A stretch of DNA of 64,000 nt from an uncultured Gammaproteobacteria bacterium (GCA_965231005.1 OZ246405.1:167204-231203), one strand, 5' to 3'. Numbered from the stretch's first letter, positions 18,296 to 57,346 are shown. A program made the numbers and translations. Notes: a model not told the origin generated them from the letters alone.

Positions 18296-18324
18296 TTGAC
18301 AAAACCGATTTTTTTTGCTATAGT
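18296..18324 (+). promoter_or_regulatory. Promoter of cassette B
   Basis: TTGACA, 17-bp spacer, TATAGT. Near-identical to the cassette F3 promoter. Confidence 0.6.
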
Positions 18325-18368
18325 GAGCAGTCCAAAATGTTCTTTAAAAAGGCTCTATTTGTCAAAAG

Positions 18369-18422
18369 CAGTAAGGTCTCACAGGATGTATCTATTCAGA
18401 TGCATCGTGTGAGACCTTACTG
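18369..18422 (+). other. Perfect 15-bp stem with 24-nt loop in the 260-nt leader of cassette B
   Basis: CAGTAAGGTCTCACA and TGTGAGACCTTACTG. No T-tract follows. Confidence 0.7.
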
Positions 18423-18583
18423 TAGTTCTCCCTGGTTGCTCTTGATGAGCTGCTAGGTTGTTTTTTGACCGTACTGAAAGAAGCCAACTGCCCGAGCGGC
18501 ATACAAGATAGATCCCCACAAGAGATCTGACAGGGCGATCCTGCCCAAACCAAAGGGCAGACTGCCCGACAACGGAGTAGACC

Positions 18584-19669
18584 ATGACTACGAACAACAA
18601 CGGAAGAAACCGAAACCGCCTCCTCGTCACCGACTGGGACGAAGTCGGTCGCGACATCGAGGGCAAGTTCACCCACCGCATCAGCCTGTTCGATGACCTC
18701 GGGCCGGCTCAGCTCCCCCAGGTCAGCGAGATCATCATCCGCGCCATCGAGACGGTCGCACCTGACCCCGAGACCGCTCACAAAGCCGTGGTACGCATCC
18801 AGACCCGCGAAATCCACGAGATCTTCGTGCGCGGTGACAGCTCGCGCGATGTGAAGCCGCGCATGGTCGCACGGGGCAAAGACAAGCACAACGAGATGAA
18901 GGCGAAGCTCGACTACAAGGGCAAGCTGCTCAGCGGCAAGCACAACCGCAAGAACCGGCATCTCCGCGAGAAGCTCGACGAGCTGGTCGAGCGTGTGTCC
19001 ACTGGCGACCTCGACCTCTTCATCGACCGCATCATCGGCAACATCGCCTGGCTCATGCGCGGCGATGGCATCTGGGTCGACGGCACCAAGATGTTCGAGG
19101 GCGAAAAGTTCTTCGCGTCCCAGATCGTGCTCCACAAGGACGACCTGGACGACGAGGAGCTGGAAGAACTGGAAGCCGAAGCCGAGGCCGACCGTGACGC
19201 GGCTGCCATCCGCGATGCCGAGAAGGAAAAGGGTGAGCCGCTGACCGACGAGGAGATCGAGCACGTCAAGGCCGAGCGTCGGCGCAAGTGGGCCGAGAAG
19301 GTCGCGGCGCGCGAGGCTCGCAAGGCCGAGCGTGATGGCAAGTCCGAGTCCGACGGCGAGAGCGGCGGTGAGTCCGGCGGCAAGGGTGACCTGGCCGACG
19401 ACGACAAGCTGAAGGCTCTCGACGGCAAGCTGCCGAGCAACCCCGACGAGGCCGAGCTGGCGCGCCTGCAGAAGAAGGACAAGTGGAGCGCCGCGGACTG
19501 GCGTGCGCACGCCGAGTGGAAGCTGGGCAAGCCGTTCAGCAAGGGCACCGAGGCCCAGGCCGCTCTGCGCGAAGCCAACTGGGACAAGGCCGTGGTCCTG
19601 AAGGGTCTGCAGCACAAGCTCGCCAACCTCGCCAACGGCAACGGTGAGGGCAAGTCCGACGCCAAGTAG
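18584..19669 (+). CDS. GC-rich hypothetical protein with a long charged C-terminal tail (cassette B, 361 aa)
   Basis: ATG with SD GGAG. GC-rich third codon positions. No domain recognised. Confidence 0.6.
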   Translation: MTTNNNGRNRNRLLVTDWDEVGRDIEGKFTHRISLFDDLGPAQLPQVSEIIIRAIETVAPDPETAHKAVVRIQTREIHEIFVRGDSSRDVKPRMVARGKDKHNEMKAKLDYKGKLLSGKHNRKNRHLREKLDELVERVSTGDLDLFIDRIIGNIAWLMRGDGIWVDGTKMFEGEKFFASQIVLHKDDLDDEELEELEAEAEADRDAAAIRDAEKEKGEPLTDEEIEHVKAERRRKWAEKVAAREARKAERDGKSESDGESGGESGGKGDLADDDKLKALDGKLPSNPDEAELARLQKKDKWSAADWRAHAEWKLGKPFSKGTEAQAALREANWDKAVVLKGLQHKLANLANGNGEGKSDAK

Positions 19670-19762
19670 ATTCGCCATCTACACCTGCCTGCCCAAAGGG
19701 TCGGGGGCCGCACGTAGTGATACGTTGTGGCCCCTGCCCCTGGCGGCGGGAACATAAGGAGT

Positions 19763-19790
19763 CACCCATTCTCTGGACAAAGAATGGGTG
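19763..19790 (+). other. 10-bp stem hairpin 3' of cassette B
   Basis: CACCCATTCT-ctggacaa-AGAATGGGTG. Confidence 0.5.
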
Positions 19791-19830
19791 AAGAAACAGT
19801 TCGTACAATAACTTGTACACACTGCATCAT

Positions 19831-19857
19831 AAAAAACTTCCTAACGGAAGTTTTTTA
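19831..19857. terminator. Bidirectional terminator after cassette B
   Basis: AAAAAACTTCC-taac-GGAAGTTTTTT. Confidence 0.8.
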
Positions 19858-19906
19858 TTGTCTAATATCTATTATTTAATAGACCTCGATTAAAGAACTA
19901 TTTTTT

Positions 19907-19942
19907 TGCCTTTAGAGCCTTTACAGCATTTATGGCCTTTTT
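19907..19942. repeat. 9-bp tandem array x4 upstream of the cassette C promoter
   Basis: TTGCCTTTA GAGCCTTTA CAGCATTTA TGGCCTTTT. Confidence 0.65.
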
Positions 19943-19974
19943 AGATTGACAATACAGTCAATCTAAGGTAACGT
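19943..19974 (+). promoter_or_regulatory. Promoter of cassette C with an overlapping perfect palindrome
   Basis: AGATTGAC-aataca-GTCAATCT spans the -35 TTGACA. The -10 is TAACGT at a 17-bp spacer. Confidence 0.5.
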
Positions 19975-20017: not shown

Positions 20018-20944
20018 ATGACTGGACCTTTCAAACTTCTCTTTCTCGACTTTGATGGAACTGCAACTGATGCTGAGCGCGAAGGCACTGAGCCTGGACC
20101 GCAAAGCCCTGGTGATCTGTCGTTTGTAGACGGATATCTCAAGGATATTGGGGTCATCTGTGACATTCCCTTGGCGCAAATGCAAAAGAGAAATGCAGCG
20201 CTTGTAGCCGAGATGCTTGCTGATCCAAGACGGCATTGTCTTGTCATTGATGGACAGAAGGTTGCACCAAGTTGTGTTGACCCCTTCCTCAGGACTGGTA
20301 TGGTTGTGAGACTGATTTTGGAAGAATCTGGTCTCATGTCCGAGACACCCGAAACAAGGGCAGCCCGAGACCGCATGATCACCAGTGTGATCTACCCATG
20401 GAACTACAGAGCAAGATCATCGATCTGCTTCCGTGCTGGAGCAAATGCGCTCTTTGCAGCGCTGCGCAACTCCAACATTCACATCATCAGCAACTCACAT
20501 ACAGACGGTGTGAATGGCAAGCTCGACCGTTTGAAGGATGGTCGATGGATCCTCAACGGAGATCAGGGCATTCCTCGTGTCCATGGTGATGCCAAGAAGT
20601 TCATCAACGACCCAAACTGGGAAGGCTCTGACCACATCGGCTGGCATCCGCCAACTGGACTGGAACTCCCAGGTCTTGATCGTGAAGTGCTGCTCCGACG
20701 ACGACTCTACTTCGCCAAGATGGATGCCATTCGCCGTCACTACGGACTCGAATGGGGACAGATCATGGTCGCAGGCGATATCTTCGAACTGGACCTGGCA
20801 GTGCCGTTGACACTGGGCTGCACTGTGGTGCTCATGGCCAACGAATTCACTCCGGGATACGAAATCGACTTCCTCCAGAGCCACCCCAATGGGCATGTGA
20901 TCGACAAGGTCATGGACATCGCAGATCTGTTCCTTGTCCCATAG
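20018..20944 (+). CDS. GC-rich HAD-superfamily hydrolase (cassette C)
   Basis: Motif I FLDFDGT, motif II ISNSHTD, motif IV VAGDIFELD. SD is GGAGGA. Confidence 0.7.
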   Translation: MTGPFKLLFLDFDGTATDAEREGTEPGPQSPGDLSFVDGYLKDIGVICDIPLAQMQKRNAALVAEMLADPRRHCLVIDGQKVAPSCVDPFLRTGMVVRLILEESGLMSETPETRAARDRMITSVIYPWNYRARSSICFRAGANALFAALRNSNIHIISNSHTDGVNGKLDRLKDGRWILNGDQGIPRVHGDAKKFINDPNWEGSDHIGWHPPTGLELPGLDREVLLRRRLYFAKMDAIRRHYGLEWGQIMVAGDIFELDLAVPLTLGCTVVLMANEFTPGYEIDFLQSHPNGHVIDKVMDIADLFLVP

Positions 20945-21025: not shown

Positions 21026-21050
21026 AATATCTCAAAAGAGATATTTTTTT
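21026..21050 (+). terminator. Terminator after cassette C
   Basis: ATATCTC-aaaa-GAGATAT followed by TTTTTTT. Confidence 0.75.
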
Positions 21051-21057
21051 GTTTTTT

Positions 21058-21100
21058 CCTTTAAAGCCTTTATAGCATTTAAGGCATTTATAGCCTTTTT
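21058..21100. repeat. 9-bp tandem array x5 upstream of the promoter of the MBL-fold gene
   Basis: TTTCCTTTA AAGCCTTTA TAGCATTTA AGGCATTTA TAGCCTTTT. Confidence 0.65.
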
Positions 21101-21107
21101 AAAAGCC

Positions 21108-22362: not shown

Positions 22363-22562
22363 CAAACTTGTATAGGGATATTCTTTAAGAGAAGAGTGGA
22401 ATCAATAGTTATTAGCTATTAGTTACTAGTTATTAGCAAACTAGGCTTAGATCTTTCTTAAATATTGTCTATTAACTATTAGCTAGTAACTAATTCCTTT
22501 CTTGCAAAGCCATCCTATACTAAGTTGTTAATTGCTAATTGTTAGTTGTTAATTGTTATTAA
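22355..22562. repeat. MITE-like structured intergenic element, copy A
   Basis: Bounded by GCAATTAACAAAC and the inverted TTGTTAATTG array. Carries the internal 12-bp inverted repeat ATTAGTTACTAG/CTAGTAACTAAT. Homologous to copy B at 40612-40836. Confidence 0.6.
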
Positions 22563-25204: not shown

Positions 25205-26464
25205 TCAGGCTACCTTGAAAACTGGTCTTGCTCTTACATCGTTTCGGTCAACTTTCAAGCAACCGAGGGCTTTACGTGCCTCTGCTGGGCTGATGAACTC
25301 GCGTAGCATGAGTCTGTAGATGTAGTTTACGCAAAGGATGTGCATGATGAAGTTGTACCCAACACGCTCCCCTGTGTAATACCGGTACTGATCGTGCCTT
25401 GAGATTTGTTCGTACAGCTGATCTCGAATGTACTGGATGTCATGTCCTTCTGCACGCAACTGTGCTTCTTGTCCTCTGTGGAACGTAAGCACATACAACA
25501 GCATGGGAGTCAGTTCGGGATGGAGTTGTGTTCCAATCCACCACGGACCTGCACTGAGCACCTCTACCATGTACTGATGTATTTCGTGCTTTCGCTTTGT
25601 TCTACCCACCCGGGCAAACCGACGATGACTCACAGCAAGTACTGAAGACCTCAGACTGGGATGATCTGGATCAAGATACATCGAATGCACTTCAAGCGCA
25701 AACGTATTATGTGTCATCCGAAGAACTGGGTGGCTCCGCTTCGTTCGAACGACTTGCAGTCGTTGTCTCCCGTAAATCATAAGGCGCTCGCCAGGAGAAA
25801 CTGGAAAAAAACGCCTGCTGGTCGCACCGGTTGATTCGACAAGTAAAGAAGCTTGTTCTGGAGCAATCAAATATTCTGGCATTACGCCGAAAAGCGCGTG
25901 TGCCATCATTTGGCATCCAAAACAAATGTTGAATCCTGGAATGCCAATCTCGTGACAAAACTGCATCAGTCTGATGGAATCTTGAATGACCGACGTGTCT
26001 TTGACCTGATCAAGCATCTTTGGTGAGCCACTGAAAATAATCCCAGCAGGTCGTGAATGCTCAACCATGATCTGGTGGCACAGGTCTGAAATGTGTGACT
26101 CGGCATGGACAATAAGCAGTTCGAGTGGTTTGGCACCACGTGCACTGAACGCACCAGAGTTGTTTGCCCAGCTCAGCCAACGACCGATCTTGTCAGTGTC
26201 TTTAAACCAACCATCATCAACACCACGCAGCAGCATCTTTCTGAGATCTTGACGGCCAACGCCTGTGTTGATGAAGAGATCAGTCCACTTATTCCCGTTC
26301 GCACTGTCCAACGTTTCTTGGATCATCTTGTGGTAGATGTGTTCCTGACCTGGACGCATGTCCACGTACACGACAGTGTTGCCCTTGATTCTGTCGCCTT
26401 TGCGGTAGATATAGGTTGGGCAAGGACGAGGCGTCCTGCCCGCAAATCTGCGGCTCATAGTCAC
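25205..26464 (-). CDS. GC-rich class I glutamine amidotransferase-like protein with extra N- and C-terminal regions (cassette D)
   Basis: GATase1 nucleophile elbow NICFGCQMMAHAL and HPE in IGTQLHPELT. SD is GGAGGTGA. Confidence 0.55.
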   Translation of the reverse strand: MTMSRRFAGRTPRPCPTYIYRKGDRIKGNTVVYVDMRPGQEHIYHKMIQETLDSANGNKWTDLFINTGVGRQDLRKMLLRGVDDGWFKDTDKIGRWLSWANNSGAFSARGAKPLELLIVHAESHISDLCHQIMVEHSRPAGIIFSGSPKMLDQVKDTSVIQDSIRLMQFCHEIGIPGFNICFGCQMMAHALFGVMPEYLIAPEQASLLVESTGATSRRFFPVSPGERLMIYGRQRLQVVRTKRSHPVLRMTHNTFALEVHSMYLDPDHPSLRSSVLAVSHRRFARVGRTKRKHEIHQYMVEVLSAGPWWIGTQLHPELTPMLLYVLTFHRGQEAQLRAEGHDIQYIRDQLYEQISRHDQYRYYTGERVGYNFIMHILCVNYIYRLMLREFISPAEARKALGCLKVDRNDVRARPVFKVA

Positions 26465-26523
26465 CTCCCCCGGTGGGTGTCACCGTATACCCATCTAGCC
26501 ATAGGTAGTTTATTTTGTCAATC

Positions 26524-28920: not shown

Positions 28921-29469
28921 CTATCGCCGGAAGCCTTTGGCAGGGAAACCGTACGTAATTCCAGACGAGGGTGGATGCAACAGAGAATTGAGTGCATCTT
29001 GGTACACTGAATACCAAGGAAGTCTCCCTGGAGCCCCCTCGAAGAGGGTGTGAGTCACAAGATGGACATGACTCTTTTTCACCGACCGAACATGTACTCG
29101 AATCCTGATCCGAAGATCTGGCATTTGAACCAATGAAACGACTTTCCGATTCGACGTCTTGATGCAAATAGGCTTGTCCTTGACCATGATGACAGGAAGT
29201 GGACTGCCGTTGTGGGCGCAAAACACATACCCACGTTTTTCATTGCACCGAAAGTAGGTCCGCACGCGATGTCGAGCAATGTGAAGCGGTGGAAACACCA
29301 TATCTCTTGGGCTAGAAAACAAATCCTCACCAGTCGCGTCGCACCGAAAGCGGAAAACAACACGACCACCACCCACACGAACAGGGTCAAAGCCTTCTCG
29401 TGCGATTTTTCTGAATACTTGCTGCGGCATCCGATTTACAACTCCCATGACTGCGATAAGCTGACTCAT
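28921..29469 (-). CDS. GC-rich hypothetical protein (cassette G, 182 aa)
   Basis: SD is GGGGGTGAAAG directly before the ATG, the same spacer as cassettes A and F3. Confidence 0.5.
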   Translation of the reverse strand: MSQLIAVMGVVNRMPQQVFRKIAREGFDPVRVGGGRVVFRFRCDATGEDLFSSPRDMVFPPLHIARHRVRTYFRCNEKRGYVFCAHNGSPLPVIMVKDKPICIKTSNRKVVSLVQMPDLRIRIRVHVRSVKKSHVHLVTHTLFEGAPGRLPWYSVYQDALNSLLHPPSSGITYGFPAKGFRR

Positions 29470-29538
29470 CTTTCACCCCCTGTGGAAGAATTTTCGTTTG
29501 CGTCATATATTTATAGTTACATTATTAAAATAATCTGT

Positions 29539-29570
29539 CAAAAAAACCAAGCAAATAGCTCGGTTTTTTA
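29539..29570 (-). terminator. ileS terminator, abutting the cassette G promoter TTGACAG
   Basis: Minus strand AACCGAGC-tattt-GCTTGGTT followed by TTTTTTT. Confidence 0.6.
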
Positions 29571-29589: not shown

Positions 29590-32481
29590 CTATTCCTTAC
29601 TAACTTTCAATGAAAGGCTTGAGTCATGAATCGTAATATCTTCTCCAACACTCTTACCTGATTCTTCAACGCGCTGACTTCTTGTCGACTTTGCAATATC
29701 ATCTCTATATTCTGCAAAAACATCTTTCACCAACTTGTCAGAGGAGTTCCATGTCAGTACACCACCGTCGTTGAGTGTTAATTTTTCTTCTTTTCTCATT
29801 TGATTTACAGCACGAATAATCTCTCGAGCCATGCCTTCTTTTTTCAATTCAGGAGATAGTGTAACATTCAGACCAATTTCTAAATCGTTCTCTTTTCTCG
29901 TTTTCCATTCTCCTTCTTTTGACATTTTTTTCTGCAACGTTTTTACGTTTAACTCATCTAAAATAAGGGATGCAAGACTGCTTGAAATTTTTTCATTTAC
30001 TGACAACGTTGCCAGTGGCTGACGAACACGAATACCAACTTCTTTTCTAACAGACATTCCTAGTTCAACAACTTTTCTGACCTGTTCCATTTCACGAATA
30101 GACTTGGCATTTTTCCAAGATTTTTCTGCTTCTGGCCACATATCAAGATGAACTGATTGTTCTTGTCCACCAACTTTTCTGTAAACATATTCAGCAATAA
30201 AAGGAGTAAATGGTGCCATGACCTTTGAGAGTGTCAACAATACTTCTTCGAGTGTTCCGAGTGCAGCTGCTTTATCTTTTTGATCATCAGATTTGAGTCT
30301 ATTTCTTGATCGACGAACATACCATTGCGAAAGATCTAAAATAAAATCTTGAATTGGACGCGCTGCTTCTGCAAGTCTGTACGCCTTCATTTCCTTTGTA
30401 ACAATATCAACAAGTTCATAGAGGCGTGCACGAATCCATACATCAAGATCATGTTTTGATTTACTTTCCTTGTCACCATCTTTAAACATTTCATAAAATG
30501 TTACAACATTGGAAAGTGTATTCATGTTTTTGTTAAACACCTCTCTCACACCTGTCTCAGAAAAATTCATACTTTCCATTGCCATGACTGGAGAACTAAG
30601 CAAGTAATATCGGAGTGCATCTGCTCCATATGTTTCAATCATTTTCATTGGATCTGGATAGTTCTGTAACTTCTTACTCATTTTCTTTCCATCCTCTGCA
30701 AGAACAATCCCGTTCACAATAACATTTTTAAATGCATTTGATTTCTTTATTCCTGTTCCAATAATGTGCAGATAATAAAACCACGCACGTGTTTGGTCTT
30801 GCGCTTCTGCAATAAATTCTGCAGGAAAACCAGCATCAAATTTTTCTTTATCTTTAAATGGATAATGAACCTGCGCATATGGCATTGACCCAGAATCAAA
30901 CCATGTATCAAGCACATCTGGAATTCGTGACATTGTTTCATTACACGAAGGACATGAAAATGTAACCTTATCCATTGTATGTTTGTGTAAATCATCTATC
31001 TTCAAACCTGATAATGATTCTAGTTCTTTAACCGAACCTACAACAACATAGTCACATTCTTTTTCTTTCTTATTTGAACATTCCCAAACTGGCATGACAG
31101 ATGCCCAAAAACGCTGCCGAGAAATAGACCAATCTCGGGCGCCTTCTAACCAGTTTCCAAATCTGCCTTCTTTTACATGTGCTGGTGACCAGTTAATATT
31201 CTTTGCTTGTTTTAATGCTTCTTTTTTAATTTCTGTCACATGTACAAACCAAGAAGATGTTGCATAATTTAATAATGGTGTGTCACAACGCCAACAATGA
31301 GGATAGCTATGTTCATATTTTTTCTTTGCAAACAATTTTCCATTATGCGCAAGCCATTTAATAATTTTAACATCGGTCGCCATATGATCATCTGACGGTT
31401 TTACGTGGTCGCCAGCAAAATCTGTAACATCATCTGTAAATGTTCCATTCATTTTTACATGTTGGATAAATGGTACACCTTCTTGTTTAAAAATTTCATA
31501 ATCATCACTCCCAAAAGCAGGAGCAAGATGTACAACACCTGTTCCCTCTTCTGTTGTTACAAAGTCTGCATGCAGAATACGAAATGATTTTTCACTCTCT
31601 GCAAAATATGGAAATAATGGTTCGTATTCTAAATCGATGAGTTCTTTTCCTTTTTTGTTATCAATTACTTCAAATTCTTTACCCTCAAAATTTGCCATAA
31701 GCAAATCTTTTGCAAGAATATAATGTGCATTTTCAAATTTTACAATGACATAGTCTATATCTTTTCCAACAGCAAGAAGTACATTGCCAGGAAGTGTCCA
31801 CGGTGTTGTTGTCCATGCAAGAACATACACATCTCCTTCAACATCAAGTCCTTCTGGATTTGTGATTTTAAACTGAGCAGTAACTGAAATATCTTTTACA
31901 TCTTTATATCCTTCACTTACCTCTTGCTGAGAAAGTGTTGTCTCACAACGAGGACAAATATGCATTGGTTTGTATCCTTGATAAATCAAATCCTTTTCCC
32001 AAAGTTCTTTAAACACCCACCAAACTGATTCCATATAATCCTTGTCCATTGTCCAGTATGCATTTTCCATATCTACCCAACGACCATATCGCTTAATCAC
32101 CTTTGCCCATTCTGTTGCATATGCATCAACTTTTGAGCGACAAAGATTGTTGAACTTTTCAACACCCATTTTTTCAATATCTTGTTTACTTTTTGTTCCA
32201 AGTTCTTTTTCAACAATATTTTCAATTGGCAATCCATGACAATCCCAACCCCAAACACGTTCAACACGTTTTCCATTCATTGTCCAAAATCTTGGGACTG
32301 TATCTTTCATCACACTTGGAACAAGATGCCCATAATGAGGAAGACCTGTAGCAAATGGTGGACCATCATAAAAAACATACGGCTCATCTTCTGGACGTTG
32401 TTCAACTGATTTTTCAAATGCATGAATGTCTTCCCAATATTTGAGAATTTCTTTTTCATGCTTATCTGCTAAATACGGCAT
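29590..32481 (-). CDS. ileS: Isoleucyl-tRNA synthetase
   Basis: HYGH and KMSKK class I motifs, editing domain, and C-terminal zinc-binding cysteines. About 963 aa from the MPYLADK start. Confidence 0.95.
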   Translation of the reverse strand: MPYLADKHEKEILKYWEDIHAFEKSVEQRPEDEPYVFYDGPPFATGLPHYGHLVPSVMKDTVPRFWTMNGKRVERVWGWDCHGLPIENIVEKELGTKSKQDIEKMGVEKFNNLCRSKVDAYATEWAKVIKRYGRWVDMENAYWTMDKDYMESVWWVFKELWEKDLIYQGYKPMHICPRCETTLSQQEVSEGYKDVKDISVTAQFKITNPEGLDVEGDVYVLAWTTTPWTLPGNVLLAVGKDIDYVIVKFENAHYILAKDLLMANFEGKEFEVIDNKKGKELIDLEYEPLFPYFAESEKSFRILHADFVTTEEGTGVVHLAPAFGSDDYEIFKQEGVPFIQHVKMNGTFTDDVTDFAGDHVKPSDDHMATDVKIIKWLAHNGKLFAKKKYEHSYPHCWRCDTPLLNYATSSWFVHVTEIKKEALKQAKNINWSPAHVKEGRFGNWLEGARDWSISRQRFWASVMPVWECSNKKEKECDYVVVGSVKELESLSGLKIDDLHKHTMDKVTFSCPSCNETMSRIPDVLDTWFDSGSMPYAQVHYPFKDKEKFDAGFPAEFIAEAQDQTRAWFYYLHIIGTGIKKSNAFKNVIVNGIVLAEDGKKMSKKLQNYPDPMKMIETYGADALRYYLLSSPVMAMESMNFSETGVREVFNKNMNTLSNVVTFYEMFKDGDKESKSKHDLDVWIRARLYELVDIVTKEMKAYRLAEAARPIQDFILDLSQWYVRRSRNRLKSDDQKDKAAALGTLEEVLLTLSKVMAPFTPFIAEYVYRKVGGQEQSVHLDMWPEAEKSWKNAKSIREMEQVRKVVELGMSVRKEVGIRVRQPLATLSVNEKISSSLASLILDELNVKTLQKKMSKEGEWKTRKENDLEIGLNVTLSPELKKEGMAREIIRAVNQMRKEEKLTLNDGGVLTWNSSDKLVKDVFAEYRDDIAKSTRSQRVEESGKSVGEDITIHDSSLSLKVSKE

Positions 32482-32488
32482 AAATAAA

Positions 32489-32644
32489 AAACAATTAACA
32501 ATTAACAATTAACAATCCACCTAGGACTTGATAATCGTTAATTGCTGTTTGGTAATCGTTACCTATCGTATGTTTTTTTTGCTTAGTTGTCAAGTTTTTT
32601 TGATTCAAAAAATTTGTTAATTGTTTTTTGTTAATTGCTAATTG
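32489..32644. repeat. MITE-like element copy C, with inverted TTGTTAATTG arrays bounding about 100 bp
   Basis: Left arm is (AACAATT)x4 and right arm is TTTGTTAATTGTTTTTTGTTAATTGCTAATTG. It has an internal 9-bp direct repeat TAATCGTTA. The right arm abuts the island E terminator module. Confidence 0.55.
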
Positions 32645-32645
32645 T

Positions 32646-32689
32646 AAAAAGAAAAAGCCCCGTACGTAAACGCCGTGACTCTTCCTCCC
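32646..32689 (-). terminator. Repeated 44-bp terminator module, copy 1, 3' of the UPRT-like gene
   Basis: AAAAAGAAAAAGCCCCGTACGTAAACGCCGTGACTCTTCCTCC, near-identical to 34839-34882. Confidence 0.5.
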
Positions 32690-32721: not shown

Positions 32722-33570
32722 CTACTTCTTGGTTCCGTGCAGGCGCTCACCCACACCACCAGCACCAGGCACGATGTAGTGGATGTCGTTGAGTCCAGAC
32801 TCTTCGTCCCAGCGTTCACCGGGCACACAGTTGAGCACGTCTGTTGGGCTCATGCCACGGTCGATTCGACCGGCAAAGATGTGAACGTCTGGATGATCGG
32901 TCGACATCTTGCGGATGAACTCAGGCGTGACGATGAGACACATGACAACGAACGTGGCACCGAATCCACTATACTTCTGCTTGTACAGCGTGACCGCATC
33001 ACTCATGGACCCACCAGTTGCGCCCATGGGGTCTGGAATGAGAACGAGCTTGCCAGCCACATCACCGTCGATCTTGTCAGCCGGGCACTCAACATGCGTC
33101 ACAGCACCAGTTGTCTTGTGGGCCATGCGCTGCATCATGAGAACATCCATGCGCACGCACGCATCACCGAAAGTGGTCGTGAGGATCTCCTGCAGCCTGT
33201 AGCTTGGAATTCCACCAGCGCGCATCACATTTGCAATGACGATTCCACCGGCAGGCGGCTGGATGATCGGACAGGTGAACACTGCCTTGTCTCCAACCAA
33301 CTCATGCATCGGCGTAGTCACAGAAACCGACTTCTGATGAAAAATGGTACGGTCTTCAACCACTGCCTTCATGAGCTGAGAATAGGCTCCTCTCACCAAG
33401 TCGCCAAGCCGCGGCATGACCGCATCCTCACTGGACATTTCCGCGAGCATTCGGAACAGGTAGGGAGATGCAGGAACCCGCAACGAACCCCCACCTTCCC
33501 AATGGTACTGATGAGGGATGTCATCCAGATTGATGTCAAAATACAAATCCCAATGTGGATCTCTGTGCAT
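32722..33570 (-). CDS. GC-rich uracil phosphoribosyltransferase-like protein with a roughly 75-aa N-terminal extension (island E, gene 5)
   Basis: VLIPDPMGATGGSM aligns with Upp ALIVDPMLATGGS. YIVPGAGGVGERLHGTKK aligns with YIIPGLGDAGDKIFGTK. Confidence 0.7.
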   Translation of the reverse strand: MHRDPHWDLYFDINLDDIPHQYHWEGGGSLRVPASPYLFRMLAEMSSEDAVMPRLGDLVRGAYSQLMKAVVEDRTIFHQKSVSVTTPMHELVGDKAVFTCPIIQPPAGGIVIANVMRAGGIPSYRLQEILTTTFGDACVRMDVLMMQRMAHKTTGAVTHVECPADKIDGDVAGKLVLIPDPMGATGGSMSDAVTLYKQKYSGFGATFVVMCLIVTPEFIRKMSTDHPDVHIFAGRIDRGMSPTDVLNCVPGERWDEESGLNDIHYIVPGAGGVGERLHGTKK

Positions 33571-33614
33571 GTCTATCTCCCTACCACTGTTGAATGTGGT
33601 TTCGTTCTGGAAAG

Positions 33615-33643: not shown

Positions 33644-33653
33644 CGTATTCCTT

Positions 33654-40836: not shown

Positions 40837-40841
40837 ATTTT

Positions 40842-49428: not shown

Positions 49429-50022
49429 TTATGGTTTTTTTACTTTATCAAACATGTCCATATGAACCATATGTTCAAACATACCACGAAGGATAATCTC
49501 TTCATTTTTCATTTGTTCTATTTCTTCTTCGTCTAACGTGGATTGACCTGCTTCTATATCTTGCTGAAGTTCGCTCCTTCTTAGAGCGACCCAATCATAT
49601 GGACTTCTAGTAGTTCTTTTAACCCGTACAACATGTGTAATCTGAATAAGAGCAGAACCCTCTTCTCTAAATTTTCCTTCTTTATACAGCCGAGAAACCT
49701 CTTTTAGAATACCCTCCTGTACTCGTAGACTTTTTATATCAAACTCATAATTATGATCTCCTGTACTCCGAAAACGAGCTTCTGCTTCTGCAAGCATTTC
49801 ATCATTCATTTCTTTAAGACGAGAAAAATACAAAATACCATCCTTATATTTTCTTTCTGAATCCCTTCCAGTCAAATCCCTTCTGTCAGGATCTTCATGA
49901 TCTTTTTTCAAGTCTTGCTCAAGCCACTTGCCAGAATCACTCGTAATGGCATCCTTTTTCCTAGGGAGAGCTGCTAATAGCTCTGGAGGAACAGGTGTTT
50001 TCCTTATTCTGCTTCGAGACAT
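49429..50022 (-). CDS. Hypothetical charged protein
   Basis: 197-aa ORF with host composition. Confidence 0.4.
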   Translation of the reverse strand: MSRSRIRKTPVPPELLAALPRKKDAITSDSGKWLEQDLKKDHEDPDRRDLTGRDSERKYKDGILYFSRLKEMNDEMLAEAEARFRSTGDHNYEFDIKSLRVQEGILKEVSRLYKEGKFREEGSALIQITHVVRVKRTTRSPYDWVALRRSELQQDIEAGQSTLDEEEIEQMKNEEIILRGMFEHMVHMDMFDKVKKP

Positions 50023-50435
50023 AGGAATACTATTACCCTATTGAAACGCGTGGCAAAAATAAAAAAACAGCTACCAACAAACTGATACCTGCAAGCAAAT
50101 AATAGTAAACAAGGTGAAATTCTTCTCTTTCTTGGGTATTAAAAAGACCCTTATGTTTATGTTGCATAGATTTTGTGTTTGTTTTGATGTTTATGTTTGT
50201 TTGGGGCGCATTGTCCCCTGTCTTTGTGTCCCAACTGGCGTGTGAGATCACACGTTATGATACAAAAGCACTACACACCTACATTATTCTCCGATAAAAC
50301 AACAACCGGATGAAAAATATAAATATCTGCTACTTTTATATAACTATTATAGCAGAAAAAAGGGCGTTTGTCAATAGCAATTTTTTGCAAAAAACCTTTA
50401 CTTTGCGATTCAAGTGTCGTAAAATAGTTACATAT

Positions 50436-51413
50436 ATGAAAAAAAATCTTGCAAAACTTCTCAGAGAATTTCTTGAACATTTAGAAATTGAAAAAAATCG
50501 AAGCAGCAAAACTGTTCAAAACTATACCTTCTATCTTTTTAGATTTTTAGAGTGGCATGGAGAAGATAAAGGGGCAAAAAGTATTGATGGTGAGGCTGTA
50601 CGCCAATATCGTCTTTGGTTAAATAGGCTTGTTGATGTTCACGGGGAACCCTTGAAAAAAAATACACAAAATTATCATCTTATTGCATTGCGTTCTTTTC
50701 TAAAATACCTAGCAAAACGTGATATCACGAGTTTGGCAGCAGAAAAAATTGAATTAATGAAAATGCCAGACCGCCAAGTAACATTTTTAGAAGGCACAGA
50801 TCTTAGTCGCCTACTCGAAGCACCAGTAGAAGAATTAAAAAATACAAAAGACCAAAAAAACGCATCAACAAATAGACTGATCGGTCTTAGAGACAAATGT
50901 ATTTTAGAAATGTTGTTTTCAACCGGTCTACGTGTTTCAGAATTGGCAAAATTAAAAATTGAAGATGTAAATGTTGAAAAGGATGAATTTACTATTCAAG
51001 GGAAGGGAAAGAAAACAAGAATTGTATTTTTATCTGAGCAGGCAAAATACTGGTTAAAAGAATACACAAAAGCAAGAAAAGACATGAATCCTCATTTATT
51101 TGTATCTCATGACAAGAACAAAAAGGCAAGAGACAAAAAAGCAGAAACTCTCGAGTCAATTAGTCCAAGGACGATTCAACGAATTGTTCAAAAATATGCA
51201 AAAATAGCTGGAATTACAAAACCAGTAACTCCTCATACCTTGCGACATTCATTTGCAACAGATCTTTTGCAAAATGGAGCAGATATTAGGAGTGTTCAGA
51301 GCATGCTAGGTCATTCTTCTATAACAACAACACAAATTTACACCCATATTACAGATAAGGAGCTTCGAAAGATACACAAAAAATTCCATGGGAAAAAGCG
51401 AAGTGGCGATTGA
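50436..51413 (+). CDS. Tyrosine site-specific recombinase, XerC/XerD-like
   Basis: Catalytic R..K..HxxR..Y (LRHSFATDLL, GHSSITTTQIYTH). AT-rich. Confidence 0.8.
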   Translation: MKKNLAKLLREFLEHLEIEKNRSSKTVQNYTFYLFRFLEWHGEDKGAKSIDGEAVRQYRLWLNRLVDVHGEPLKKNTQNYHLIALRSFLKYLAKRDITSLAAEKIELMKMPDRQVTFLEGTDLSRLLEAPVEELKNTKDQKNASTNRLIGLRDKCILEMLFSTGLRVSELAKLKIEDVNVEKDEFTIQGKGKKTRIVFLSEQAKYWLKEYTKARKDMNPHLFVSHDKNKKARDKKAETLESISPRTIQRIVQKYAKIAGITKPVTPHTLRHSFATDLLQNGADIRSVQSMLGHSSITTTQIYTHITDKELRKIHKKFHGKKRSGD

Positions 51414-53023: not shown

Positions 53024-53097
53024 GGTGGCTATGGTGTAGTGGTAACACAGAGGCTTGTGGTGCCTTTATCACGGGTTCGATCCCCGTTAGCCACCCC
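53024..53097 (+). tRNA. tRNA-His (anticodon GTG) with an encoded G-1
   Basis: Hand-folded. G-1 pairs with discriminator C. Acceptor GTGGCTA/TAGCCAC. Anticodon loop TTGTGGT. T-arm ACGGG-TTCGATC-CCCGT. Confidence 0.8.
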
Positions 53098-53116
53098 TTT
53101 GGGGGTTTTTTATTTG
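53089..53116 (+). repeat. tRNA-His 3' end plus terminator, repeat copy i
   Basis: AGCCACCCCTTTGGGGGTTTTTTATTTG. An identical 28-mer recurs at 54081-54108 and a diverged copy at 53569-53606. Confidence 0.8.
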
Positions 53117-53120
53117 GATC

Positions 53121-53149
53121 AAAAAAACACCAGAGTTGGTGTTCTTTTG
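53121..53149. repeat. Cassette-boundary hairpin module 1
   Basis: AAAAAAACACCA-gagt-TGGTGTTCTTTTG. Confidence 0.75.
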
Positions 53150-53182: not shown

Positions 53183-53500
53183 CTACCCCCCTGCCTCAAA
53201 TATCGTTGCCAGATCTTCAATTTCCTCTCTTGTCCATCCATCATAATATTCGCTCCAAAAAGGATGTTCTTTATCCTCAAGCATCGCTCTATAGTCGTAG
53301 GACAGACTCTTAAACGAGACTGGGGATGGGTTTTCAGACTCCAGCACACTACGCTCTTTCTCAAATTCACGCTGGAATATTTTCATCACCCTGTCTGTAG
53401 GTGCCAACTGCTTGGCTTTTTCACTGACCCTGTTTAGTATCTCCTCACCCATCTCCTTTACATACGCAATTTCCCTATATGGGCTCAATTCACTATCCAT
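53183..53500 (-). CDS. Hypothetical 105-aa acidic protein (cassette F6)
   Basis: ORF between boundary modules. Its promoter TTGTTC, 16-bp spacer, TATAAT lies at 53528-53555. Confidence 0.5.
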   Translation of the reverse strand: MDSELSPYREIAYVKEMGEEILNRVSEKAKQLAPTDRVMKIFQREFEKERSVLESENPSPVSFKSLSYDYRAMLEDKEHPFWSEYYDGWTREEIEDLATIFEAGG

Positions 53501-53568
53501 ATGAAAATATTAATAATAATCTCCCTCATTATAGCACCAATCAGAGAATGAACAAAGTTCTAATACCG

Positions 53569-53606
53569 CCCACTAACCCACCCCAGTGGGGGTTTCTTTT
53601 TTTACG
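53569..53606 (+). repeat. Diverged copy ii of the tRNA-His 3' end plus terminator module
   Basis: CCCACTAACCCACCCCAGTGGGGGTTTCTTTTTTTACG compared with CCCACTGAGCCACCCCTTTGGGGGTTTTTTATTTGCAC. Confidence 0.6.
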
Positions 53607-53653
53607 CTAATTTTCTTGTTTTTGTTGAGGGAAATATCTTGGCTCTAACCAAA

Positions 53654-53683
53654 CAAAAAAACACCATGGTTGGTGTTCTTTTG
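53654..53683. repeat. Cassette-boundary hairpin module 2
   Basis: AAAAAAACACCA-tggt-TGGTGTTCTTTTG, followed by a second hairpin GCGGTTT..AAACCGC. Confidence 0.75.
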
Positions 53684-53740
53684 TGCTCGCGGTTTTTTGG
53701 GAAACCGCGAAAACCTTTGGCCTTTCCTCTCACGTAAGGA

Positions 53741-53974
53741 TTACCGACGAGAGCAGGAATCGCGAGGCAAGGAAAGCACTGTTCCCCGGCCACCGCACCG
53801 AGAACAGCGGGATCTTGCAGCGCGCCTGCTGCACCCTCCTCCGCCACATGCGGGACATGTCGGGCAGGTCATCGTGAACCCGTGCCCTCCACATCTTGTG
53901 CACGTTGAAGAGAACGTAACTTCGCCACTTCCATCACACCTGGGGCAAGTGACTCTAATTTCCTTCTCATTCAT
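53741..53974 (-). CDS. GC-rich 77-aa DnaJ-type zinc-finger miniprotein with four CxxCxGxG repeats (cassette F5)
   Basis: CPRCDGSG, CTRCGGHG, CPTCPACGGGG, CSRCGGRG. SD is AAGGAGG. The promoter TTGACA, 17-bp spacer, TATATA lies at 54008-54036. Confidence 0.6.
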   Translation of the reverse strand: MNEKEIRVTCPRCDGSGEVTFSSTCTRCGGHGFTMTCPTCPACGGGGCSRRAARSRCSRCGGRGTVLSLPRDSCSRR

Positions 53975-54071
53975 ACAACCCTCCTTGGTTGTTGAAACAC
54001 ACATTCATATATAGCATGGCAGTTCTTTCTTGTCAACTGTACAACACTCTTTATATCGAGGATACTAATAT

Positions 54072-54108
54072 CCCCCACTGAGCCACCCCTTTGGGGGTTT
54101 TTTATTTG
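54072..54108 (+). repeat. tRNA-His 3' end plus terminator, repeat copy iii (identical 28-mer)
   Basis: CCCCCACTGAGCCACCCCTTTGGGGGTTTTTTATTTG. Confidence 0.8.
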
Positions 54109-54163
54109 CACTGTGTCTCGCCGAAGCCCTGTCTGCCGACAGGCAGGTTTAGTGAAGGCGGAT

Positions 54164-54192
54164 CAAAAAAACACCATTACTGGTGTTCTTTT
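54164..54192. repeat. Cassette-boundary hairpin module 3
   Basis: AAAAAAACACCA-ttac-TGGTGTTCTTTTG. Confidence 0.75.
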
Positions 54193-54303
54193 GTTATCGG
54201 GCGATTCGTATTGAATCACCCATCTCCTTCAGCCCGATATAGCTCGGGCCAGGCCTCTGCAAAAAGCAGGAGTGAAAGGTGGCTTTCTCAGCCACTACGT
54301 TTT

Positions 54304-55476
54304 TCATCGGCTTTTCCGACGGCGTCTATTCCTTGGGCTAGGTTTTCTTCGCGGTCTTCTCAGTCGGATAAAGGACAAACCCTCGAGTGCACGAATGGCA
54401 GACTGCTCTTTGGATTTTTCCGCACTGGATCCAACACCAATCCCAATTCGCTGCTCTCCGACGAACACTTGTCCGACGAACCAAGTCTGCGAACCTGACC
54501 TTTGCTCAACCTCATAGGTTGGCAACACGCCGAGCTGCTCTAGTAACCTGCGCTGCAATTTCTCGACTGCGCTGTTTGGGGTCCCTTCAGCATACTTCTG
54601 GACCTCGAGCTCGACTTGTGGAGTAGAGGCCGGAGGTGGTTCAGGTTCAACGTTACTTGGAGCCCGAGACGTTGTTGCTGGAGAAGTTCGTTTGTTTGTG
54701 GAAGATAGGGTTCGTGAAGGTTCGCTGCGAGGAGCTGTTGGCTCAACTCGAGTGAACAACTGTGGATGCATTCTGGCGAGCTTTATCAGTGCGCGCCTTG
54801 CAGCTTCTTCCATGGACGCAGGCTTAGTACTGCCCATGCCAGATGCGAAATCCTGTCCATCGATGAGAGCAACAGACCGGACTCTGCCGGTTGGAATCTT
54901 CCCGTTCTGCTTCACAGTCCTCATGCCAGGCTTTTTGCCAAGCCGAGTAACCAGAAGCCGAAACCTCACAAAAGGAGTGTTGAGATGTCTCTGTCTGACT
55001 TCTGGGAGCCGAGAACAAACAAGTCTGTGAACAAACGACCTTGCTTCTCCATACCCGACATCAAGGTTAATCGCCTGAATGATTGCTTCCATTGCACAAG
55101 CAACCTTCATGTAGCTGCGACCAATACGGAGGCTCTTCTTTTGGTACACAGTCCCGCGGATGTCGAGATGCAAGCCAAGACTGATTCCAATATCAGCAAG
55201 ACATCGGTTGCTAACCAGCTCTCGGCAGTATCGAGTCAGTTCGACTAACGTCTCCCCTGGTGCTCGATGGCTGACAAGATATCCTCTGACAATACCTTCG
55301 AGAAGTCCGTCACCGATCCACTCGAATTCTCTGTTGTCGCCGAGCTCGCTTGCTTCGGGATTCTCCCAGACAAATTCCTTGGTAGTCAGTGCAACGAGAA
55401 GAACTCGCTTGTCTTCGAACGTCACACCGATCTTTTTCTCAACTCGCGAAACAAGTTCGCGGTCAGATTGGTGCAT
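54304..55476 (-). CDS. GC-rich RNase III-like protein with two C-terminal dsRBDs, a Pro/Ser/Thr-rich linker and an Arg-rich tail (cassette F4)
   Basis: The signature NREFEWIGDGLLEGIV parallels ERLEFLGDSILS. Two dsRBD C-terminal halves are present (GSTKPASMEEAARRALIKL and GSSAEKSKEQSAIRALEGL). The second catalytic Asp appears replaced by Cys in hand alignment (ACAMEAI versus ADTVEAL). The promoter lies at 55565-55593. Confidence 0.7.
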   Translation of the reverse strand: MHQSDRELVSRVEKKIGVTFEDKRVLLVALTTKEFVWENPEASELGDNREFEWIGDGLLEGIVRGYLVSHRAPGETLVELTRYCRELVSNRCLADIGISLGLHLDIRGTVYQKKSLRIGRSYMKVACAMEAIIQAINLDVGYGEARSFVHRLVCSRLPEVRQRHLNTPFVRFRLLVTRLGKKPGMRTVKQNGKIPTGRVRSVALIDGQDFASGMGSTKPASMEEAARRALIKLARMHPQLFTRVEPTAPRSEPSRTLSSTNKRTSPATTSRAPSNVEPEPPPASTPQVELEVQKYAEGTPNSAVEKLQRRLLEQLGVLPTYEVEQRSGSQTWFVGQVFVGEQRIGIGVGSSAEKSKEQSAIRALEGLSFIRLRRPRRKPSPRNRRRRKSR

Positions 55477-55617
55477 GTGCACCTCCCAATATGCTATGAA
55501 GCTCTACCCTTCTTGTGCGAAGAGGAGCTTAGTTTTTATATGCCCATGTTTTGTGGGACGTATAAACATATCATAACACAGTTTTTTTGTCAATAAAGCG
55601 AACTTTTTAATGAAATA

Positions 55618-55649
55618 TCAAAAAAACACCATTTTCTGGTGTTCTTTTG
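55618..55649. repeat. Cassette-boundary hairpin module 4
   Basis: ATCAAAAAAACACCA-tttt-CTGGTGTTCTTTTG. Confidence 0.75.
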
Positions 55650-55800
55650 ATTGGCCCCAACAATGATGTTCGTCATGTCAGAGCGGTGTTTGGTCAACTG
55701 CAAGCAGCTGCCTAAGTAGGGAGCATTCGTCAACGAGTGACAAATGATTCCAAGGGCCAAAGGCCAGAATCTGGAGGACTATGATTTTTTTTGCTGGCGA

Positions 55801-56214
55801 CTAGCTCAGCAGTTCGCGGATGCTCGTGCTAAGCGACTCGCTCAGGTGTTGATCGACAACGAGCTTGCCATCGACCTTGTTCATGATGACGACATGGGTC
55901 ATGCCATTCGAGGACATTTCTGCCTCGAGCAACAGCTGATACATGTCGATGAGTTTGACAGGAATCTTCTTGAGCATCTCTGGGTTTCTCGCAAACGATT
56001 GAATCGACACGATGTTGCCAGTGAGATCAGGAAAAAGCGCGTCTCCATTCTCGTCCCACAGAGGGGAATCTTCAGGTTCGCTCACAGTGACCACTGCGAC
56101 GCGTCCATCGGACCAAATCCTTCTCAGCTTCTCCTCCTCTCGTCGAGTGAAGGAGCATCCGAAATGATCTGCAAGAACCCAACAGGCCCTATCATACTTA
56201 TCATACCTATCCAT
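55801..56214 (-). CDS. GC-rich hypothetical 137-aa protein (cassette F3)
   Basis: The promoter TTGACA, 16-bp spacer, TATATT is at 56248-56275. The leader carries the inverted repeat GTCCA-caaaa-TGGAC. SD is AAGGAGGTGAAAG. Confidence 0.55.
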   Translation of the reverse strand: MDRYDKYDRACWVLADHFGCSFTRREEEKLRRIWSDGRVAVVTVSEPEDSPLWDENGDALFPDLTGNIVSIQSFARNPEMLKKIPVKLIDMYQLLLEAEMSSNGMTHVVIMNKVDGKLVVDQHLSESLSTSIRELLS

Positions 56215-56328
56215 CTTTCACCTCCTTGTCCATTTTGTGGACGCTTTAATATAGCATAAAAAAAGCTTTTTGTCAAGGGGGAATCCTGAATATTTATTTA
56301 AAATAAAGCATTTTTTTGCAAATTTAAT

Positions 56329-56347
56329 ATCAAAAAAACACCATTTT
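56329..56347. repeat. Cassette-boundary module 5 (truncated, 5' arm only)
   Basis: ATCAAAAAAACACCATTTT then AACAATGATG. The 3' arm present in module 4 is deleted. Confidence 0.6.
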
Positions 56348-56398
56348 AACAATGATGCCTTTTTGGTTTAGGGCAATGCTCCAAGATTGCCCCTCCCC

Positions 56399-56761
56399 CT
56401 ATGAATGTTCTTGTTCGAGTCGACGGAGAATCCGCAGCGCAGACTCTGCGAATTCGTGATCCTGGTCAAACCGATCTGGTATGTTTCGCTGTGTGTTACC
56501 GATAGACGTACGAGAAAACTGTGGGAACGCCACATGAGTCGCTGGAACATCCATGTGGCTGAACCAGTAAAGAAAGTAGATGCACAGCTTTTGCGCTCGA
56601 CTCAGTGGCTCACCACTCTTGTGAAAACCGATCTTGTCAAGATCGACTCCGCATACGTCAGCACAAACTGCAATCACACGCTCTGTTTTGTATCGCCGCC
56701 GCTCCATTGCAGCACTTCGCAGCACCTGTCCGGGTGGATCTGTACTATAGATGCACCTCAT
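56399..56761 (-). CDS. GC-rich 120-aa protein with a possible DnaA-C-terminal-like HTH (cassette F2)
   Basis: Translationally coupled to F1 through an ATGA overlap. LSRAQKLCIYFLYWFS..HVAFPQFSRTSIGNTQ loosely parallels the DnaA domain IV pattern. Confidence 0.45.
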   Translation of the reverse strand: MRCIYSTDPPGQVLRSAAMERRRYKTERVIAVCADVCGVDLDKIGFHKSGEPLSRAQKLCIYFLYWFSHMDVPATHVAFPQFSRTSIGNTQRNIPDRFDQDHEFAESALRILRRLEQEHS

Positions 56762-57222
56762 GCCAGGTGTGGACGCGTCTTGCGCGCACAGGCCAGGAAG
56801 CAGCGCGCAATCGGACCGTGCCAGTACGAGTAGAGGATGAACTGCAGTGGCTGGCTCGTGTCAGGAAACATCCGAGTGATCATCCTTCCTCCAGGCCGAT
56901 CAAACCGATCACGCTCTGGCTCGACACGAACAGGAATCCGCGGGTGATCCACGCGGATCCATGCCGGACCAGCTTGTGTGTGGATCGAAGCGCAGAAAGG
57001 CCCGTCGGTCGAACCTTCCTTGACCATGCAGCCAGTGACGTACTCTCCGGTCTCGAGAAGATGTCGAGCCTGCTCATCGGTGATGGTGTGCTGCACCACT
57101 CGCCGTCCTTCTTCGTCGCGCGGCACCGTACGTGCGGCCGGCGTGCGATCCCACAGACCGTCGTGCCACTTGCGATCACGACGCCTGCCAAAACCAATAT
57201 CTCTGCCGAGTCCCATAGTCAT
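56758..57222 (-). CDS. GC-rich hypothetical 154-aa protein (cassette F1)
   Basis: Start at MTMGLGRD with SD GGAGGTCATC then ATG, identical to the island E gene 1 SD. The promoter TTGACA, 17-bp spacer, TATAAC lies at 57257-57285. Confidence 0.5.
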   Translation of the reverse strand: MTMGLGRDIGFGRRRDRKWHDGLWDRTPAARTVPRDEEGRRVVQHTITDEQARHLLETGEYVTGCMVKEGSTDGPFCASIHTQAGPAWIRVDHPRIPVRVEPERDRFDRPGGRMITRMFPDTSQPLQFILYSYWHGPIARCFLACARKTRPHLA

Positions 57223-57346
57223 GATGACCTCCGTGTTGTAGGAACGTTGCCATAGGGTTATACATGAAAAAGATGAAGATGTCAATTAGGAAAACAAAAA
57301 AACCTTTTTTAAGGTTTACAATATATTTAAATATGAATTTTTGAAT

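Follow-up and report, generated by a model that had tools for sequence, protein, structure and literature searches.

The 64,000-nt stretch of DNA analysed here (GCA_965231005.1 OZ246405.1:167204-231203; 'the window' in what follows) carries a series of GC-rich gene cassettes (named as in Table 1) whose promoters, leaders and Shine-Dalgarno (SD) sequences resemble one another, and the original prediction read this resemblance as a common regulatory front end with which the cassettes had been mobilised or assembled. The present analysis, which covers the window and ~13 kb of flanking sequence from a genome of 1.23 Mb, partly confirms the observation, which is real but mostly generic. The explanation that we consider probable is that the GC-rich genes are autonomous, moron-like units in an SD-poor chromosome of the candidate phyla radiation (CPR) type, that the reported likeness is the consensus core of their promoter and SD signals, that any further likeness is local, and that the inverted repeat found in some of the leaders is an RNA hairpin. 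Each unit would begin with a sigma-70 promoter in AT-rich sequence (TTGACA, 17 nt, TGnTAtAnT), continue with a long SD in a GC-rich leader and an open reading frame (ORF), and end in an intrinsic terminator, and the units would occupy conserved intergenic slots of the AT-rich chromosome.

The window has a GC content of ~36% and is interrupted by sharply bounded stretches at 45-65% GC, a division that is repeated in the ORFs (45-65% for the cassettes versus 33-41% for resident genes). Directly observed in ten cassette units is a switch from AT-rich to GC-rich DNA at the -10 hexamer or transcription start (e.g. at 7876-7902, 18296-18324, 26493-26521, 34793-34821 and 54008-54036), with GC fractions of mostly 0.15-0.35 for the upstream and promoter sequences (0.45-0.48 in two upstream flanks) versus 0.42-0.65 in the leader just after the -10, and the 3' untranslated regions (UTRs) of the cassettes remain GC-rich as far as the terminator. 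The GC-rich segments are, in other words, shaped like transcripts. The promoters have host-like composition and therefore give no appearance of having arrived along with the GC-rich DNA, unlike the SD, which is part of the GC-rich segment. Each GC-rich gene or gene pair is provided with its own sigma-70 promoter and intrinsic terminator and has a deviant GC content, as is the case for the morons of temperate phages, which are defined by a promoter and terminator of their own and by a GC content unlike that of their neighbours (PMC3594210). The units are moron-like and autonomous in all but their chromosomal setting, since they lie among housekeeping genes that are syntenic with other CPR genomes rather than in a recognisable prophage, and none of the ten cassette proteins tested matches a PHROG family.

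All of the strings quoted in the original prediction are found in the window where they had been placed, and the likeness of the B1 and F3 promoters, which were said to be the same module, is genuine (23/29 positions identical). Both promoters score 11/12 as sigma-70 promoters, with 10/12 for that of F4, and all three have a 17-nt spacer and a TG one base 5' of the -10, making them extended -10 promoters. However, the promoter at 50346-50374, which faces a gene of host composition, is identical to B1 and to F3 at the same number of positions (23/29 in each case), and about 15 of the B1-F3 matches belong to the consensus (-35, TGn and -10), the remainder being mostly runs of A or T. What the B1, F3 and 50346-50374 promoters have in common is TTGACA(A), a run of T's and TGcTATAnT, the extended -10. 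In addition, an unbiased all-against-all comparison of the entire 7.7 kb of intergenic DNA by blastn-short did not report the B1-F3 pair at E<=0.05. When segments were shuffled with the hexamers held fixed, z-values of 6.4 for B1-F3, 6.5 for F4-F3 and 5.3 for B1 and the 50346-50374 promoter were obtained; it is therefore not a cassette-specific module that recurs, but a promoter grammar (TTGACAA, T-run, TGCTATA). This likeness, consisting of the -35 hexamer with the A's that follow it, the T-run and the extended -10, is largely ordinary and is used by a resident gene too.

In fact, the combination of TTGACA, 17 nt and TGnTAtAnT is seen in the B1, F3, F4, zinc-finger and F1 units as well as in the resident rpiB and 50346-50374 promoters. 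A perfect TTGACA is present in ten cassette units, the spacer being mostly 17 nt and TGn frequent, and the same features occur at the resident tRNA-Arg, tRNA-His, ileS and rpiB genes, at a promoter at 7017 and at 50346-50374. The front end shared across islands is generic, and the same type of promoter drives a host-composition gene. Compared with extended -10 sigma-70 promoters that have a consensus -35, those of the window are alike and show nothing unusual. The A-rich start of the spacer and the T-run seem to be preferred locally, in this genome. The full candidate unit was formulated as TTGACAAAA/T-run/TGCTATA followed by GTCC(A)CAAAATGG, and scans of IMG/VR with the pattern TTGACAAAA-N11-TGNTATNNT-N5-GTCC and of the JGI metagenomes with a looser form (a 6-nt TTGACA -35, plus N0-3-AAAA-N0-1-ATG after GTCC) returned 7 and 6 loci, respectively, all of them unrelated promoters without a GC-rich cassette context and in numbers no greater than expected. 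A 16-nt motif located 5' of GC-rich genes in two related CPR genomes, L005 (a Paceibacter contig) and L006, was considered as a cassette junction and rejected, being the reverse complement of the extended -10 of the adjoining rpiB promoter, TGCTATAATG.

Two of the resident promoters are followed by long leaders. The 50346-50374 promoter, a perfect consensus, is situated within the 5' end, as annotated, of an Xer-type recombinase ORF on the opposite strand (50310-51413, +), the true start of which is probably further downstream, and a ~320-nt leader (50023-50374, -) separates it from its gene (49429-50022). The consensus promoter at 7017 precedes a ~270-nt leader with a terminator-like hairpin (6744-7045, -), which may be an attenuator, ahead of a two-domain ABC ATPase gene (5022-6743); no Rfam match was found for this leader.

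The SD sequences provide another contrast, again directly observed, between the cassettes and their surroundings. AAGGAGGTGATC is complementary to the 16S tail, and a match to it of at least 5 nt precedes 11/18 cassette genes versus 2/38 resident genes; SDs are equally scarce in two related CPR genomes. A 420-aa S1 protein is present. Conservation of the 16S tail, GAUCACCUCCUU(A/UCU), across prokaryotes is striking (PMC6107228), and the recurring SD spacers would be the complement of this conserved 3' tail, GGAGGTGA(TC), with the strings GGTGAAAG-ATG and GGAGGTCATC-ATG representing the tail complement and, at a near-optimal distance from it, the start codon. Because GAUCACCUCC gives GGAGGUGAUC as its complement, GGTGAAAG can be read as the SD tail GGTGA plus AAG, while GGAGGTCATC, which is one base off the perfect complement GGAGGTGATC, is nearly all SD. 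The cassette leaders extend GGAGG to GGAGGTG(A), occurring independently in C, E3, F3 and F4, or to GGAGGTCATC, placed 5-6 nt 5' of the ATG as is usual in SD/anti-SD pairing, and the match is 6-7 nt long at E1 and F1 and 10 nt long at F3. Unlike in the usual SD systems, the resident genes of this genome are nearly SD-free. In this chromosome it is the foreign genes that are distinguished by SD use, as in SD-poor lineages such as Bacteroidetes (PMC7797042).

That SD spacers recur between cassettes, as had been proposed, holds in part. The string GGAGGTCATCATG stands at the starts of E1 and F1 and nowhere else in the window, which is above the shuffle expectation, and GTGAAAGATG has five occurrences (0.26 expected), three of which coincide with the starts of A (7757), the 182-aa cassette (29467) and F3 (56212). 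However, the complete GGTGAAAG is found only at the 29467 and F3 starts, cassette A having GAGTGAAAG instead, and the AdoMetDC cassette carries AAGGAGGGAAAATATG rather than GTGAAAGATG.

Upstream of resident genes a different kind of element is found. Tandem 7-nt repeats (TTAATTG/TTAGTTG) are present at 7924-7957, 16615-16661, 22525-22558, 32477-32515, 32614-32644, 40612-40643 and 40806-40839, directly 5' of the start codons of the resident gyrA, ftsH, trxB and ileS genes and also 5' of the cassette A and ileS promoters, and the gyrA and trxB upstream regions have TAG-rich repeats in common as well (22409-22494 and 40679-40769). One possibility is that these 7-nt and TAG-rich repeats are leader elements belonging to a translation system that does without the SD.

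The inverted repeat of the F3 leader, the only perfect one, is predicted to fold into a 5-bp stem with a 5-nt loop (folding free energy, dG, -6.1; 65% of the ensemble) that leaves the SD free. The front end of F4 (55542-55593, -), which the original prediction had missed, is a third related unit and consists of TTGACAAAAAAACTGTGTTATGATATGTT, 5 nt and GTCCCACAAAACATGGGC. The offset of 5 nt after the -10 is the same in F3, F4 and B1, so that the half-site of cassette B (GTCCAAAATG) does stand at the same position as the F3 repeat. The claim that F3 and E1 share the repeat between the -10 and the SD fares less well: a repeat is present at both, but that of E1 is reversed and has a 6-nt loop, and its placement between a -10 and the SD is merely putative, as no sigma-70-like promoter was detected 5' of it on its strand and no -10 near the site. 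Between F3 and F4 both arms change together (GTCCA/TGGAC to TCCCA/TGGG) and the loop grows from 5 to 7 nt. With arms separated by 5 nt in F3, 7 nt in F4 and 6 nt in E1, there is no fixed half-site spacing. A stem-loop at the 5' end of the RNA accounts better than one dimeric operator for spacing and orientation that vary while pairing is preserved.

The original prediction had nevertheless offered the repeat as a candidate operator for a shared repressor, a proposal that now appears weak. On this reading GTCCA-N5-TGGAC would be the DNA site of an island repressor (e.g. F2 or the winged-helix-like E1-E3 proteins) or of a host TrmB-family protein, co-regulating F3, F4, E1 and perhaps B1. At F3 the perfect palindrome and the predicted +1 overlap, which is a classical position for a repressor, and related sequences stand at an equal offset in F4 and B1; furthermore, all five GTCC-N4-7-GGAC matches in the window (1.27 expected) fall within GC-rich islands, two of them in leaders, and a TrmB-family gene is present at 12009-12887, with nothing that ties TrmB to the repeat. 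A rigid dimer would not, however, accept the variable spacing, and the arms themselves differ, the E1 repeat is reversed and has no detectable -10 nearby, B1 has a half-site only and no inverted partner, and a search that tolerated up to two mismatches found no further leader sites in the window, leaving two or three sites in 64 kb. None of the candidate regulators was confirmed; for F2, Pfam and PDB gave no match, and the AlphaFold model is unusable (pLDDT 43). A common operator is, in our judgement, an unlikely function for the repeat, and co-regulation of these units through it quite improbable.

Most likely the short repeat acts in RNA, as a 5'-terminal stem-loop that would shield the end of the mRNA and leave the SD accessible. 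Transcripts are known to be stabilised by stem-loops of this type (Emory et al., 1992, via PMC3997798), and the F3 and F4 leaders resemble the 5' stabilisers of Escherichia coli (ompA/papA type) and Bacillus subtilis in having a short hairpin at the predicted first nucleotides of the transcript with a strong SD immediately after it. In comparison with the ompA/papA type, these hairpins, placed at predicted transcript starts, are just 4-5 bp long.

A much larger structure is found in the 259-nt B1 leader, where a near-perfect 25-bp hairpin (18369-18422, +; dG -44.9 kcal/mol, z -8.8) sits on the AT/GC boundary; it may represent either a processing site of the RNase III type or a junction at the level of the DNA. 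Searches of the B1 leader and of the two long host leaders for known RNA families (Rfam) returned nothing meaningful.

The part of the common front end that does stand is local. The F3 and F4 spacers, adjacent in the tRNA-His island, have in common a terminator (22 nt exact, E=1e-7), the promoter (22/29) and the +1 hairpin, and the exact terminator segment is the reason for which the two intergenic regions are considered homologous. Similarly, B1, B2 and the resident lactamase-B-fold gene have in common a 9-nt array and the -35 region (72% column identity), and one terminator family ends all five transcription units of island F. The local modules, both the F3/F4 spacer and the array with its -35, would have arisen by duplication. 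Across islands the likeness is mostly limited to generic consensus, that is, to the sigma-70 -35, the extended -10 and the anti-SD complement, whereas the local F3/F4 and B1/B2 identity exceeds it.

These local modules also bear on whether everything beyond the sigma-70 and SD consensus, including the GTCC motif, the AAG and TCATC spacers and the B1-F3 likeness, is coincidental and reflects neither descent nor function. The initial transcribed regions taken alone are not significantly alike (P ~0.25-0.29 by shuffling): a common 4-mer at one offset in 3/19 promoters arises in 29% of shuffles, and the best local alignment is equalled in 25%. The failure of blastn to report B1-F3 at E<=0.05, and the mere handful of unrelated loci yielded by the metagenome and viral scans for the promoter with GTCC..AAAA..ATG, are likewise as coincidence would have it. 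The exact terminator segment shared by F3 and F4, the z-values of ~6.4-6.5 that persist for B1-F3 and F4-F3 when the hexamers are fixed, and the occurrence of GGAGGTCATCATG twice and of GTGAAAGATG at three starts argue the other way, and we regard pure coincidence as unlikely.

Tandem 9-nt repeats (GCCTTTAAG-like) are more widely distributed in the window (18133-18295, 19898-19945, 21047-21107, 57348-57403 and 63899-63954), and similar arrays are present in the related Paceibacter contig (L005 1655-1700 and 18195-18245), there within 5' leaders. A transcription-factor array and a recombination target are both possibilities for their role. Between island F and a response-regulator gene lie ~400 nt of non-coding, AT-rich DNA (57400-57800) with repeated ATCATGATTC-like motifs.

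The host is identified by its genes as a Patescibacteria/CPR-type organism with an AT-rich chromosome. The peptidase M17 encoded in the window is 63% identical to a protein of a Ca. Paceibacter metagenome-assembled genome (MAG) and 53% identical to one of a Magasanikbacteria MAG, and the resident gene order is kept in both. The islands are not assembly chimeras, because independent assemblies of two samples cross the island junctions at 100% identity. Look-ups of exact proteins recovered only contigs 100% identical to the window, with the additional ~13 kb of flank, which contains no further cassettes or perfect promoters. Four intergenic slots (rpiB/ileS, ileS/pepM17, ruvA/gyrA and lactB/rpsA) carry different, often GC-rich genes in three CPR genomes (the window, L005 and L006), and the slot orthologous to the B1/B2 region is an empty 265-nt spacer in L006. 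Two genes of ~60% GC beside rpiB, L005 1931-2641 and L006 4385-5161, are distant homologues (36% over 67 aa).

The cassette proteins are mutually unrelated and are singletons at 90% identity, and for most units no close relative was found in the large protein collection searched. The B1 protein (361 aa; GC at third codon positions, GC3, 0.88) has no relative in a search of 5.8 billion proteins, the RNase III-like F4 (54304-55476) has a closest match of 30% identity, and for the MTAP-like E4 (33722-34720) the matches listed reach at most 49% identity (39-43% for the best-scoring), the named ones being mostly archaeal MTAPs. Comparison with PADLOC, Pfam (E<=10) and PDB gave no phage, defence or regulator annotation. 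As to whether the leaders travel with the genes, homologues of B1, F4 and E4 are absent or too distant for upstream regions to be compared. The high GC3 suggests recent arrival, yet the donor lineage is not visible.

At the tRNA-His gene, the last ~17 nt together with a terminator occur in three places (53082-53116, 53569-53603 and 54074-54108) and bracket two ~0.5-kb cassettes, one with a 105-aa ORF and the other with a 77-aa CxxC zinc-finger ORF (53741-53974); the triplication resembles a trace left by integrations in tandem at the tRNA that later decayed. Such repeats could also be taken, with the AT-rich front ends, as recombination or docking sites at which foreign GC-rich segments are placed behind resident promoters, in the manner of an integron with cassette-proximal promoters. 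The serial arrangement of small cassettes of unrelated genes, with boundary repeats beside a fixed site (the tRNA-His end and the 9-nt arrays), does recall an integron array, and the composition switch at the transcription start in ten units, the GC-rich 3' UTRs, the triplication of array and promoter around B1 and B2 and of the tRNA-His end around the two cassettes, and the different occupants of the same slots in relatives, one of them empty, all agree with capture of this kind. However, the sole recombinase of the window (50310-51413) is of host composition, scores as XerC/D/A with 141 bits against an integron-integrase cut-off of 265, and lies ~1.6 kb and three genes from the array, so that no adjacent IntI is present; the cassettes carry their own promoters, and the element repeated on their 3' side is not attC but the hairpin of an intrinsic terminator, complete with A and T tracts. 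An integron was rejected on these grounds. Also significant is the lack of an attC-like structure common to all cassettes, the restriction of the repeat to 3-4 of ~13 units, the absence from the window of any reverse transcriptase or transposase that could be seen, and the fact that island F is explained by tandem integration of the ordinary kind at a tRNA with subsequent decay. Capture at docking sites is thus an improbable origin for the units. Least plausible, and very doubtful in our estimation, is a lineage-specific mechanism that docks transcript-shaped foreign segments (5' UTR with SD, ORF and 3' UTR) behind resident promoter/array modules and before reusable terminators at a few conserved slots; if true, it would amount to a gene-capture and expression platform distinct from integrons, with the front ends and the +1 repeat as its junction sequences.

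Against the explanation by autonomous units with consensus signals, local duplication and an RNA hairpin, a number of points have to be set. B1-F3 is the most alike of 136 promoter pairs (z=3.3), including 5/7 identity 5' of the -35 and GTCCA at an equal offset, and common ancestry of the two front ends is accordingly conceivable. No rRNA gene lies within the window or the fetched flanks, so that complementarity to the anti-SD is assumed from the near-universal conservation of the 16S tail; moreover, the AAG spacer has no anti-SD explanation, and the presence of GTGAAAGATG at three gene starts exceeds what shuffling predicts. The hairpins are short, with folding energies that are no outliers relative to shuffles (F3 z -1.4, E1 z -0.5), and their placement at the predicted +1 depends on the usual distance of 6-8 nt from the -10. 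Finally, the DNA examined is only part of the genome.

Table 1. Window coordinates of the cassettes and of their promoters, leaders, SD sequences, terminators and arrays.
Feature	Position	Strand	Sequence or description
Cassette A	7091-7759	-	GC-rich stretch
Cassette B1	18584-19669	+	GC-rich stretch
Cassette B2	20018-20944	+	GC-rich stretch
Cassette C	25205-26458	-	GC-rich stretch
182-aa unit	28921-29469	-	GC-rich stretch
Island E (E1-E5)	32722-39297	-	GC-rich stretch
Island F	53183-57285	-	GC-rich stretch adjoining tRNA-His
Cassette G	59487-60613	+	GC-rich stretch
B1 promoter	18296-18324	+	TTGACAAAACCGATTTTTTTTGCTATAGT; TTGACA, 17 nt, TATAGT, TG extended -10
F3 promoter	56248-56276	-	TTGACAAAAAGCTTTTTTTATGCTATATT; TTGACA, 17 nt, TATATT, TG extended -10
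F4 (RNase III-like) promoter	55565-55593	-	TTGACAAAAAAACTGTGTTATGATATGTT; 22/29 identity to F3 promoter
F1 promoter	57257-57285	-	TTGACA-17-TATAAC; upstream of F1 start
Cassette A promoter	7876-7902	-	TTGACA-15-TATAGT; upstream of A start
182-aa cassette promoter region	29509-29541	-	
Host-type promoter	50346-50374	-	TTGACAAACGCCCTTTTTTCTGCTATAAT; faces host-composition gene 49429-50022
F3 inverted repeat	56228-56242	-	GTCCACAAAATGGAC, GTCCA-CAAAA-TGGAC; 5 nt past F3 -10, at predicted +1
F4 leader repeat	55542-55559	-	GTCCCACAAAACATGGGC; 5 nt past -10; stem CCCA/UGGG, 7-nt loop
E1 leader repeat	39323-39336	-	GTCCCAAAATGGAC; sense strand GTCCATTTTGGGAC; 4-bp stem, 6-nt U-rich loop, reversed relative to F3/F4
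B1 half-site	18330-18339	+	GTCCAAAATG; begins 5 nt past B1 -10, without inverted partner
F3 SD and start	56212-56225	-	GGAGGTGAAAGATG; with two preceding A's, AAGGAGGTGA, a 10-nt match to the 16S 3' tail complement
E1 SD and start	39295-39307	-	GGAGGTCATCATG
F1 SD and start	57220-57232	-	GGAGGTCATCATG
Cassette A SD tail and start	7757-7766	-	(GGA)GTGAAAGATG
182-aa cassette SD tail and start	29467-29477	-	GGTGAAAGATG
Island-F terminator family	55619-55649, 53120-53149, 53654-53683, 54164-54193, 56331-56364	-	CAAAAGAACACCA-N4-5-TGGTGTTTTTTTG; one at 3' end of each of five transcription units
Island-E terminator module	32646-32688; second copy 34830-34872	-	93% identity over 43 nt
tRNA-His gene	53025-53097	+	
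9-nt tandem array, B1	18236-18295	+	GCNTTTANR; abuts B1 -35
Homologous 9-nt array, B2	19898-19945	+	abuts -35
Homologous 9-nt array, resident gene 21172	21047-21107	+	abuts -35

The finding mainly shows that horizontally acquired genes in this chromosome bear textbook promoters and ribosome-binding sites. Its useful by-product is the contrast between resident genes that are nearly SD-free and SD-led, GC-rich orphan genes with a perfect -35, in which the switch in composition falls exactly at the transcription start. Should ribosomes of this lineage read the SD, the cassette units would enjoy privileged translation; if they do not, the cassette SDs would be relics of the donor, and either answer would bear on how reduced CPR symbionts express newly acquired genes.

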